Shown: positions 10,387-59,256 of the stretch, in pieces | Position numbering within the stretch: position 1 is the stretch's first letter | Layout: each line of letters starts with the position of its first letter | DNA from: a virus | Taxonomy: Duplodnaviria > Caudoviricetes | Reading direction: 5' to 3' (one strand) | Length of the DNA stretch: 64,000 nucleotides | IMG/VR virus record: IMGVR_UViG_3300032292_000618 | Coordinates: 64,001-128,000 of that record | Notes under the pieces: model-generated | What the model was told of the DNA's origin: nothing | Databases searched by the model: none | Seen by the model: only the letters and a program-made list of their open reading frames with translations | Position numbers and translations under genes: made by a program

Positions 10387-10410
10387 AAATAACTTGTATA
10401 AATTATAATA

Positions 10411-10452
10411 CGTTCACCCATAAGGGCGGAAGTAGGGAAACTGAAGGAACGC
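10411..10452 (+). ncRNA. Glutamine riboswitch (glnA RNA motif)
   Basis: P1 CGTTC/GAACG; P2 CCC-ATAA-GGG; E-loop GGAAGTA...GAAG; short P3 capped by GAAA. Confidence 0.88.
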
Positions 10453-10483
10453 ACCAATACCCACAAAGTAAAGGAGCAAACCT

Positions 10484-13695: not shown

Positions 13696-13766
13696 GCGAA
13701 ATTGGTGTAGTGGTAACATCCCATCCTTCCAAGTTGGTGTCACGGGTTCGAATCCCGTATTTCGCT
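13696..13766 (+). tRNA. tRNA-Gly(TCC)
   Basis: Acceptor GCGAAAT/ATTTCGC; anticodon loop CT-TCC-AA; T arm ACGGG-TTCGAAT-CCCGT; no encoded CCA. Confidence 0.95.
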
Positions 13767-15812: not shown

Positions 15813-15967
15813 TGGATCAACACACCTATGATAATTGGGTGAAAATAAAAGAAACATTTGAAAAATCTGGTAATACCAATAATATGTTTTACAAAAGAGC
15901 ATGTGCTATAATAAAAACTAAAATAGATCCTATGGATAAATTTTGGAGCAACAAAGAAAAAGCTTGA
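15812..15967 (+). CDS. Hypothetical protein, 51 aa (not in ORF track)
   Basis: MDQHTYDNWVKIKETFEKSGNTNNMFYKRA... Confidence 0.7.
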   Translation: MDQHTYDNWVKIKETFEKSGNTNNMFYKRACAIIKTKIDPMDKFWSNKEKA

Positions 15968-15992
15968 CCTAACCCCAAGTTTATAGTATGAT
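15964..15992 (+). promoter_or_regulatory. Sigma70-type promoter
   Basis: TTGACC-17 nt-TATGAT. Confidence 0.65.
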
Positions 15993-16013
15993 AACTAAAT
16001 CAACTTCAACATT

Positions 16014-16205
16014 ATGGAACAATTTACTATTGAACACTTTCAACAAGATTTTGATAATTTGTTGAATAGAGTTGAAAATGGAGAATCATTTTTAATCACA
16101 AGTGAATATGGTAATGCTGTAATGACTCCTTATGTTGGAAAAAACCAACTAAGTCTAGTTGATGAATTTGTTAAGATCCACACAGAACATGAAGATGGAC
16201 CTTAA
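16014..16205 (+). CDS. Phd/YefM-like antitoxin-fold protein
   Basis: FTIEHFQQDFDNLLNRVENGESFLIT...NAVM matches the Phd N-terminal pattern. Confidence 0.65.
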   Translation: MEQFTIEHFQQDFDNLLNRVENGESFLITSEYGNAVMTPYVGKNQLSLVDEFVKIHTEHEDGP

Positions 16206-16213
16206 CTTTTTTA

Positions 16214-16285
16214 GGGAGTATAGCTTAATGGTTAGAGCGGGCTCCTTATAAGGGCTTAGTCTGGGTTCAACTCCCAGTATTCCCA
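16214..16285 (+). tRNA. tRNA-Ile(TAT)
   Basis: Acceptor GGGAGTA/TATTCCC with discriminator A; anticodon loop CT-TAT-AA; T arm CTGGG-TTCAACT-CCCAG. Confidence 0.92.
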
Positions 16286-16310
16286 TTTGCTATTCGCAAA
16301 TAGCAAATAT

Positions 16311-16500
16311 AGTCATGGAGAGACTTTAAAAACCCTGGTCGGGATGAACCCCCTTCAGTCATGGAGAGACTTTAAAAATCCTGGTGGAGTCAATATGACC
16401 CTCATTAGGTTTCCAATTTCCTCAAAAAATTGGTGGTGCGGATGGAGGTTACTCCCGCCTGGTTTCCAATTTCCAGTTAAAGAATTGGTGGCGTGCATGA
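16311..16500 (+). ncRNA. Tandem-pseudoknot structured RNA, manA-like
   Basis: Two copies of AGTCATGGAGAGACTTTAAAAAyCCTGGT and two of GGTTTCCAATTTCC...AATTGGTGG; located between a tRNA and sugar-nucleotide genes, the context reported for manA RNAs. Confidence 0.7.
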
Positions 16501-16510
16501 AAGACCTAAT

Positions 16511-16538
16511 AGGAGAGTTGCATAAACTCTCCTTTTTT
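16511..16538 (+). terminator. Rho-independent terminator
   Basis: AGGAGAGTT-gcata-AACTCTCCT followed by a T-run. Confidence 0.85.
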
Positions 16539-16546
16539 AGTATAAT
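16518..16546 (+). promoter_or_regulatory. Sigma70-type promoter for the glyco operon
   Basis: TTGCAT-17 nt-TATAAT overlapping the terminator. Confidence 0.65.
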
Positions 16547-16566
16547 AATGAAAAAGTAATCTGTAT

Positions 16567-17568
16567 ATGAAAGTAGCTTTAATTACTGGTATCACTGGCC
16601 AAGATGGATCGTATCTTGCTGAATTATTACTCCAAAAAGGTTATGAAGTTCATGGCATTATTAGAAGGTCTTCCCTTATCAATACGCATCGTATTGATCA
16701 TGTATATGATTCAATTAATTTGCATTATGGGGACCTTACTGATGCTACGAACTTAGTTAGAGTTATTCAACAAGTTCAACCAGATGAAATCTATAACCTT
16801 GCTGCACAAAGTCATGTAAAGGTATCTTTTGAGATGCCTGAGTACACTGCTGATGTTGATGGTGTTGGCACACTAAGGATCCTAGAATCAGTTAGGTTGC
16901 TTGGTATGGAAGATAAAGTGAGAATCTATCAGGCATCTACATCTGAACTGTATGGACTTGTTCAGGAAATCCCTCAGAAAGAAACAACACCTTTTTATCC
17001 TAGGTCTCCTTATGGTGTTGCTAAGTTATATGCTTATTGGATCACAAAGAACTATAGAGAAGCGTATGACATGTATGCCTGTACTGGCATCCTGTTCAAT
17101 CACGAATCTCCTAGAAGAGGAGAAACATTTGTAACTAGAAAGATTGTTAGAGCACTATCTAAAATTTCTTGTGGTTTGCAAGATACATTATATCTGGGCA
17201 ACCTTAATGCCCAAAGAGATTGGGGTCATGCAAAAGATTATGTAGAAGCAATGTGGTTAATGCTCCAGCAAAAATATGCAGATGATTATGTTATTGCAAC
17301 AGGAGAACAATACTCAGTCAGAGAATTTGTAGATAAAGCAGCACCTTACTTTGGATTTAATATTGAATGGAAAGGTAAATATATGGATGAAGTTGGGATT
17401 GATACTAATACTGGAAAAGAGGTTATTAAAGTAGATCCTAAATATTTTAGACCTGCTGAAGTAGAGACTTTGTTAGGTGATGCCTCTAAGGCAAAAGTTG
17501 AATTAGGTTGGGAACCTAAGATTTCATTTGATCAATTAGTTGAGGATATGTGCATTTATGGACAGTAA
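16567..17568 (+). CDS. gmd: GDP-mannose 4,6-dehydratase
   Basis: [41 protein letters not shown]. Confidence 0.98.
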
Positions 17569-59111: not shown

Positions 59112-59158
59112 ATTTTAGTGTGAAGGAAGTGCTGGAGAGGATTTTTCCTCTCCATTCT

Positions 59159-59241
59159 GGGAGCGTGGTGAAATTGGTAAACACACGACACTTAAAATGT
59201 CGCGGGCATTGCCCTTGTCGGTTCAATTCCGACCGTTCCTA
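59159..59241 (+). tRNA. tRNA-Leu(TAA)
   Basis: Acceptor GGGAGCG/CGTTCCT; anticodon arm CGACA-CTTAAAA-TGTCG; long variable arm; T arm GTCGG-TTCAATT-CCGAC. Confidence 0.95.
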
Positions 59242-59256
59242 TTGTGTAATATGGGT

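Follow-up and report, generated by a model that had tools for sequence, protein, structure and literature searches.

A four-module pseudoknot chain extends the wcaG RNA of a T4-like cyanophage

Background

Between a tRNA-Ile gene and gmd, the first gene of a sugar island, a T4-like cyanophage carries a short repeated stretch that raises a simple question: is it a coding segment or a structured RNA, to what family does it belong, and how might it act? The stretch occupies positions 16286-16546 of the 64,000-nucleotide (nt) piece of DNA analysed here (the window; positions 64,001 to 128,000 of IMG/VR virus record IMGVR_UViG_3300032292_000618), which is part of a 142.8-kb phage record that is 67% complete. 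An initial annotation of these letters had listed a hairpin, two near-identical 29-nt units (16311-16339 and 16357-16385), two further units at 16408 and 16461, and a terminator, and in our reading of the sequence each of these elements lies where that annotation had placed it. The analysis below shows that the four units form a single chain of small pseudoknot modules, the 3' half of which is the known wcaG RNA and the 5' half of which consists of a second type of module. We regard the identity and structure of this four-module, extended wcaG chain as close to certain, and its function as a matter of considerably weaker inference.

The wcaG RNA was described in 2010 as a marine and cyanophage riboswitch candidate with an unknown ligand, which usually precedes exopolysaccharide or high-light genes, and the passages of that paper devoted to it give the verdict "probably a riboswitch, complex structure" (PMC2864571). 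As given there, the alignment comprises three stems, P1 to P3, and a pseudoknot (SS_cons_1) joining the P3 loop to its 5' flank, while the supplement names two UGGYG motifs as possible sites for a dimeric protein (PMC2864571). These same passages and the supplementary note mention two UGGYG sites only, and describe neither a chain nor a second module type (PMC2864571). A literature search for expression or ligand data on wcaG turned up only the 2010 description and genome notes.

Results and discussion

The 3' half of the stretch is the wcaG RNA

The initial annotation had named as background manA, an RNA that occurs in cyanophages next to tRNAs and sugar-metabolism genes. Covariance model searches instead assign the 3' half of the stretch to wcaG: at 16405-16502 the Rfam model RF01761 scores 94.1 bits (gathering cut-off 42) in a full-length match covering model positions 1-98 of 98, and this is the sole wcaG match in the phage record. 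The manA model (RF01745), on the other hand, has no gathering-score match in the window and none at E<=10 in 16150-16650, and the preQ1 models RF00522, RF01054 and RF02680 are likewise unmatched at E<=10 in the latter interval; an identity with manA or preQ1 was rejected on these grounds. Like wcaG, manA is an orphan RNA of cyanophages with tRNAs and sugar genes in its neighbourhood, and the two RNAs co-occur both in a contig from a metagenome-assembled genome (MAG), L225, and in the phage S-CREM1 (PMC9964418).

P1 and P3 of the wcaG RNA correspond to the units at 16408 and 16461. These have a common 14-nt start, in which GGUUUCC comes first, and in each of them CCAAUU pairs with AAUUGG past an A-rich run. 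The initial annotation had described this pairing, which in its topology is the pseudoknot of the 2010 alignment. The first unit consists of a flank AGG (16407-16409), a stem (16413-16418/16428-16433), a loop CCU (16420-16422) and a tail UGGUG (16434-16438), and the second of a flank CUGG (16459-16462), a stem (16466-16471/16483-16488), a loop CCAG (16473-16476) and a tail UGGCG (16489-16493), so that both UGGYG motifs are present; the P2 hairpin lies at about 16439-16460. We refer to units of this kind as type-B modules. Their general layout is a flank, UUU(C), a stem, a loop pairing back to the flank, an A-rich run, the return strand of the stem, and UGGYG.

In an RNAalifold analysis of 25 homologous chains with the same module order as the window, P1 and P3 each show 11-12 double changes, and P2 is kept with mostly one-sided variation. 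The pseudoknot between the P3 loop and its flank, formed in the window by CUGG and CCAG, recurs in homologues as CUGG/CCAG, CCUG/CAGG, CCAG/CUGG, CAGG/CCUG and UGAG/CUCA. When the flank-loop pairing is counted over both type-B units it lies modestly over the shuffled expectation (64% versus 38% at four pairs), and the published pseudoknot covers the P3 unit only. Given this modest statistic, we base the type-B pseudoknot chiefly on the compensatory pairs listed above and on the way the published alignment is annotated.

A second module type in the 5' half

The two upstream units are identical at 28 of 29 positions, the sole change being C versus T just before CC-UGG, and each has a stem AGUC/GACU, a loop AUGGAGA, an A-run and then yCC-UGGU. 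The first extends over 16311-16340 (stem 16311-16314/16322-16325, loop 16315-16321 with an invariant GG at 16317-16318, A-rich linker 16326-16335, tail UGGUC 16336-16340), and the second over 16357-16386 (stem 16357-16360/16368-16371, loop 16361-16367, linker 16372-16381, tail UGGUG 16382-16386). Within 16311-16400 these units matched no Rfam family, and gave no second wcaG match, at E<=10. Since the wcaG model misses them, and what they have in common with the downstream units is limited to pseudoknot topology, an A-rich loop and the UGGYS tail, they are better described as a second module type of one chain, here termed type A, than as copies of wcaG.

Homologous type-A units were gathered by sequence anchors alone, with the stem playing no part in their selection. 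The resulting consensus has a 4-5-bp stem, a 7-nt loop of the form N-Y-G-G-N-N-N, a linker starting with (Y)UAAA, and then ..C-UGGU(G/C). Full pairing at four stem positions is seen in 117 of the 134 collected units, as against 35% with shuffled partners, and 14 stem types are represented. Pair counts in a MAFFT alignment of the 131 distinct units show that the four stem pairs are essentially always formed, with compensatory changes in all four; the two most variable of them are distributed as AU 93, CG 26 and UA 5, and as UA 106, AU 19 and CG 6. A candidate fifth, outer stem pair (alignment columns 1:17) was rejected, being unpaired in 99 of 130 cells.

The tertiary contacts of the type-A unit also covary. 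Loop position 2 pairs with the base four before UGG in every one of the 131 units (CG 86, UA 45, none unpaired; U:A in the window), and loop position 5 pairs with the base five before UGG in all 63 units with a long linker (AU 31, GC 29, UA 3, none unpaired). The switch between C:G and U:A at the first of these pairs is found in at least three different loop backgrounds, and therefore does not go back to one inherited event. None of 500 shuffles reached the observed covariation score, and sliding the register lowered pairing from 86% to 20-42%. The initial annotation had proposed a pairing of the loop GGA with yCC. Its first two pairs were counted: the one between the first loop G and the C preceding UGG is invariant, the second G is paired in only 83 of 131 units, and the covarying pairs lie elsewhere. 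Taken together, these observations support the type-A unit as an H-type pseudoknot, in which an invariant GG is placed between two covarying loop-tail pairs.

A covariance model (R1) built from the 131 homologous units finds just two matches in the 64 kb of the window, at 16311-16340 (49.8 bits) and 16357-16386 (46.3 bits), the next score being 8.5. The above RNAalifold analysis recovers both type-A stems together with P1, P2 and P3, with double changes at 17 of 34 pairs, and covariation among homologues, the absence of which the initial annotation had named as a possible refutation, is thus evident for both halves of the stretch. The view of the stretch as four tandem H-type pseudoknots is borne out by counted covariation for type A and, for type B, by the published structure of P3 and the modest count described above. 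The resemblance to the preQ1-I fold (RF00522), which had been suggested for every module, extends no further than the size and topology of type A (a short stem, a loop that base-pairs to the 3' tail, and a third loop rich in A); the type-A unit differs in conserving the loop GG and the UGGU tail, and the preQ1 models, as noted, do not match it.

A chain of variable length and composition

The distribution of these modules was examined in 120 viral contigs sharing an exact wcaG core and a further 120 contigs matching a second pattern, a 14-mer that admits chance matches and from which loci were retained only if they lay in a module context. Most of the contigs with the wcaG core have extra modules 5' of the start of the Rfam motif. 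Chains contain two to five modules of the two types, and the 149 unique chains fall into the architectures BB (35), AABB (27), BBB (24), AA (16), ABB (15), ABBB (12) and AB (9), with rarer others. The 98-nt wcaG motif of Rfam is the constant 3' end of this variable chain of pseudoknot modules. The window has the architecture AABB, and its duplicated first module, which the initial annotation had pointed out, is no local oddity and belongs to one of the commonest arrangements. In retrospect, traces of the chain are visible in the raw alignment of 2010, where type-A hairpins were forced into the P1 slot and some scaffolds were entered twice at a distance of about 100 nt.

Every module is followed by UGGYS and then by a small GGA...CC hairpin. 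The initial annotation had given TGGT as the ending of every unit, which is correct for modules 1-3 of the window; the fourth ends in UGGCG, so that the common tail is UGGYS. The tails with their continuations form discrete classes, namely UGGUC-GGGA, UGGUG-GAGUCA, UGGUG-CGGAUGG and the terminal UGGCG-UGCAUG or UGGCG-AGCCUG. Those of the UGGUC-GGGA and UGGUG-GAGUCA classes occur in either order, and the two UGGCG classes are fixed at the 3' end. In the window the connector after module 1 (16341-16353) consists of GGG, a 5-nt loop and a C-run, and is represented in other loci by GGGA...CCC hairpins of varied lengths; the connector after module 2 (16386-16401) is a hairpin of GG-A-GUCA, a 3-nt loop and UGAC-CC, a form that is kept after many modules.

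The chain may also be interrupted. At L006:5100-5760 (minus strand), and also in L009, L014, L104 and L107, an open reading frame (ORF) of 76 aa, the product of which starts with MAIQGKAARS, splits an AA pair from a BB pair within one transcription unit, with no terminator in between, and the stop codon of this ORF abuts the first B module.

Coding potential

The stretch overlaps an open frame of 90 aa (16287-16559, TTG start), and a 54-aa version could begin at an internal ATG at 16395, which has GGAG a few bases 5' of it. That either is the actual product of the stretch appears exceedingly improbable. No spanning ORF of at least 45 aa exists in 134 of the 149 homologous chains, and the 90-aa product has no Pfam match. 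With spacings of 46 and 53 nt, the repeated units would be read in different frames, yet they are conserved at the nucleotide level, and the substitutions in their stems are compensatory, which runs counter to coding. The internal ATG, for its part, is incidental to the GUCA/UGAC hairpin, and many homologues lack it. With an unconserved frame, no protein family and repeats in different frames, the coding interpretation was rejected; the initial annotation had named protein-level selection on the overlapping 90-aa ORF as a possible refutation of its own reading. The stretch is a conserved non-coding RNA; the folding z-score of the whole is -2.49.

Transcription unit, terminator and promoters

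The order of features around the chain, obtained by reading 15900-16900 of the window (all on the plus strand), begins with a sigma-70-like promoter at 15964-15992 (TTGACC, 17 nt, TATGAT; 10 of 12 consensus positions). To judge by its motifs, this is the probable start of a transcript that runs through a small ORF and the tRNA into the RNA chain. The ORF (16014-16205, 63 aa) is weakly Phd/YefM-like (PF02604, 17.2 bits, under the cut-off), and in the phage DSL-LC03 the homologous position is annotated as "prevent host death protein". It is followed by tRNA-Ile with the anticodon UAU (16214-16285) and, abutting the tRNA 3' end, by a 9-bp hairpin with a CGCA loop (16286-16307; 16286-16294 pairs with 16299-16307), which has an equivalent with a TGCA loop after the tRNA-Ile of contig L100. 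A tRNA-Ile with the anticodon UAU is unusual among bacteria. All three tRNAs of the window, the other two being Gly-UCC (13696-13766) and Leu-UAA (59158-59242), read A-ending codons. As a separate observation, the window also contains a glutamine riboswitch aptamer at 10409-10455 on the plus strand (RF01739; 52.2 bits, cut-off 35).

Downstream of the chain, an intrinsic terminator with a 9-bp stem and a 5-nt loop followed by a T-run occupies 16511-16539 (stem-loop 16511-16533). Nested in it is a promoter at 16518-16546 that would serve gmd, with TTGCAT (16518-16523) in the stem-loop, a spacing of 17 nt, and TATAAT at 16541-16546; gmd itself extends over 16567-17568 and encodes a GDP-mannose 4,6-dehydratase (PF16363, E 3e-156). 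The initial annotation had noted both the terminator and the separate promoter, and this layout proves to be conserved: a terminator is found within 90 nt downstream in 75 of 97 unique loci, 61 of which have a -10-like box directly past the T-run. It is also very uniform, in that the terminator loop carries TTGCAT or TTGACA and TATAAT follows past the T-run at 17-nt spacing in L001, L004, L013 and about 60 other loci, and in most loci the terminator starts 11-26 nt past the last tail. Composites of this kind, termed PeSL, in which a terminator is combined with an early-type promoter, are known from T4-like phages (PMC2839356, PMC4122927). The stem-loop terminator overlapping a sigma-70-type promoter, seen here in the same layout at 61 loci, fits their description; PeSLs are, however, generic cassette boundaries and lie outside the function of the RNA as such.

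The terminator showed no sign of being controlled by the chain through competing pairing. By longest run, the final 80 nt of the RNA are just as complementary to either terminator arm as in controls with terminators exchanged between loci (4.21 versus 4.16; 4.43 versus 4.46), and an antiterminator-type interaction was rejected accordingly, in agreement with the preference of the initial annotation for a free RNA over a cis switch.

Neighbouring genes and occurrence in cellular genomes

A tRNA gene lies within 1 kb of 102 of the 149 chains, as against about 60 expected. Processing of the chain from a tRNA transcript, which the initial annotation had put forward, is plausible at the window locus, but close apposition is rarer: a tRNA is found within 60 nt of no more than 12 of 142 chains, mostly at a distance of 0-1. 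More commonly the neighbour on the 5' side is a protein-coding gene, the stop codon of which adjoins the chain start in 116 of 142 cases and lies inside the first module in 77. These upstream ORFs belong to 21 families. The commonest (ORF cluster 0; L002:1248-1499 and 34 other loci) encodes a small product rich in Cys, which in S-SKS1 is called "similar to gp206", and its stop codon is usually located within the first type-A module. The 111 downstream ORFs include 36 GDP-mannose dehydratases/epimerases, 14 cytidylyltransferase-like proteins, 7 2OG-Fe(II) oxygenases, 5 mannose-6-P isomerases and 4 CpeT proteins.

In a scan of 185,579 species genomes, the exact wcaG core-plus-GUUUC pattern was found in no isolate cyanobacterial genome. 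The scan yielded four true wcaG matches, all in MAG contigs (L225, L228, L231 and L235), whose bins are Acidimicrobiaceae, Neomarinimicrobiota, Chitinophagaceae and Euryarchaeota. L225, L228 and L231 contain tRNA genes, and L225 also has manA; all four contigs are probably misbinned cyanophage DNA.

Functional considerations

The explanation that we favour overall, with a confidence slightly better than even, is that the chain is a discrete structured RNA with several binding sites for a partner, rather than a classical leader switch of gmd. In the window it would probably form the 3' part of an early transcript that starts at the promoter at 15964 and runs through the small ORF, tRNA-Ile, the hairpin and the chain. 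This transcript would halt at the terminator at 16511-16539, tRNA processing might then free the chain, and gmd would be driven by its own promoter inside the terminator. Since the number of modules varies, the two types are interchangeable, the upstream order can be swapped and a gene can separate them, the modules may be viewed as independent binding units, and the chain as a multivalent scaffold presenting two to five UGGYS sites to a partner that could be a protein or the NCCA ends of tRNAs. We hold this particular mechanism tentatively, at a little under an even chance. The suggestion of a sponge or multivalent binder, already made in the initial annotation, would be in keeping with it.

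The principal rival is a tandem metabolite riboswitch, in which each module would be a small aptamer of preQ1-I-like topology for a ligand related to sugar nucleotides, and occupancy would set the read-through into gmd-fcl and the glycosylation genes. It agrees with the published assessment of wcaG quoted above, with the compact pseudoknots, their many invariant bases and A-rich third loop, with the terminator close downstream, and with the downstream enrichment of GDP-mannose dehydratases/epimerases, cytidylyltransferases, mannose-6-P isomerases and nucleotidyl transferases. Yet the locus-specific alternative pairing with the terminator arms is absent, the promoter of the next gene sits in the terminator itself, and the known riboswitch models are unmatched in the chain stretch. 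Furthermore, two to five modules of mixed type, the upstream ones being permutable or split from the core by an ORF, and an upstream stop codon inside the first module in more than half of the chains, are hard to reconcile with a leader of this kind, and we consider it unlikely, if worth keeping in view. It is the variation, permutation and splitting of the modules, the lack of an alternative terminator pairing, and the separate downstream promoter that lead us to prefer the scaffold over the leader riboswitch. A cis-acting processive antitermination RNA comparable to HK022 put or the Bacillus EAR/epsC element, which would modify the polymerase so that it reads through the adjacent and later terminators of the sugar operon, agrees with the missing competing pairing, and with a structured RNA directly 5' of an intrinsic terminator and a long polysaccharide-type operon downstream (gmd, fcl and further genes). 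Polysaccharide operons do commonly use antitermination, as exemplified by RfaH/ops and EAR. Nevertheless, the chain resembles neither put nor EAR in sequence or by model (E<=10), and many chains lie in front of a lone small gene of a different sort, encoding for example a 2OG-Fe(II) oxygenase or CpeT; we regard this proposal as improbable. A similarly low probability attaches to a role in RNA stability or processing, according to which the knotted chain and the terminator would together make the 3' end resistant to nucleases and shield the upstream mRNA or tRNA transcript, or would guide its processing, with no partner involved. The chain is always at the 3' end of a transcription unit with the terminator next to it, and it often abuts tRNA 3' ends (the 12 chains mentioned) or overlaps the upstream stop codon (77 of 142). 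However, the terminator hairpin would already protect such 3' ends, generic protection needs neither an invariant single-stranded UGGYS nor an invariant GG loop, and the upstream genes come from many unrelated families.

Several considerations weigh against the discrete, multivalent RNA that we favour. The downstream bias towards sugar-nucleotide genes (36, 14 and 5 of 111) is better explained by a role in cis than in trans, and gmd is found downstream of the chain behind at least five different families of upstream ORFs. Small pseudoknots rich in invariant bases also typify metabolite aptamers. No conserved gene for an RNA-binding protein accompanies the chains, nor is there a CsrA gene in the phage record. 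The ends of the transcript are predictions from promoter and terminator motifs, and the locus sample, which was obtained through two exact sequence patterns, is both biased and not phylogenetically independent.

Comparison with known systems shows partial parallels. The Rfam wcaG RNA agrees with the chain in its full-length match, P1-P3, the published pseudoknot, the two UGGYG motifs and a position upstream of gmd/fcl in a T4-like cyanophage; it differs in that two modules of another type, undetected by the Rfam model, precede it here. The CsrB/RsmZ sponges likewise consist of repeated short hairpins with GGA in the loop, and the ACGGAUG loops of some homologues resemble the CsrA/RsmE site. 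In the chain, however, covarying tertiary pairs lie on either side of the GG and argue for RNA structure, and the type-B modules have no GGA loop; as CsrA (PF02599) also has no match in the 142.8-kb, 67% complete phage record, a CsrA sponge was rejected and is retained as an analogy. In being located among phage tRNA genes, the chain resembles the T4 stable RNAs C and D, which lie in a tRNA cluster and to which it is not known to be related in sequence.

A more specific version of the scaffold concerns the tails. UGG is the complement of CCA, and both the antiterminator bulge of the T-box (UGGN:NCCA) and the P15 loop of RNase P present, like the chain, a conserved single-stranded UGG and a variable base that could pair with NCCA. 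The chain has neither a specifier loop nor an antiterminator/terminator alternative, nor does it match a T-box model, in all of which it differs from the T-box. To judge from base complementarity, the UGGYS tails could be receptors to which certain tRNAs bind by their NCCA 3' ends, such that the chain would capture or sense several tRNAs at once. This reading would explain the location in tRNA islands, the small number of discrete tail classes, and the 10-11-nt match of one class to tRNA-Pro. For this last point, 39 distinct tails were compared with 180 distinct mature 3' ends of phage tRNAs, and phage tRNAs only, from the sampled loci. At least nine contiguous Watson-Crick pairs were found for 11 of the 39 tails, as against about 1.1 expected, and all 11 are variants of the class UGGUC-GGGAU. 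This class reaches 10-11 nt with the ends of tRNA-Pro(UGG), and the other four tail classes reach 6-8 nt. In the window, the tail of module 1 (16336-16346, UGGUC then GGGAUG) would form 10 Watson-Crick pairs and one G-U pair with tRNA-Pro(UGG) of other cyanophage contigs; there is no tRNA-Pro in this phage record. The match is suggestive, with an estimated chance of coincidence of roughly one in twenty, and the tRNA-receptor interpretation as a whole seems to us a long shot, though not a negligible one.

Conclusions

The cyanophage stretch between tRNA-Ile and gmd carries an extended, modular form of the wcaG RNA, and the analysis adds a second, uncatalogued module type with clean covariation, which could join the RNA family catalogues and thereby better the annotation of cyanophage genomes. 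For wcaG, an orphan riboswitch candidate since 2010, the results shift the search from a small-molecule ligand alone to a discrete RNA and a macromolecular partner, be it a protein or the ends of tRNAs. If the tRNA-end reading of the tails were true, the chain might sequester, protect or monitor uncharged tRNAs during infection.

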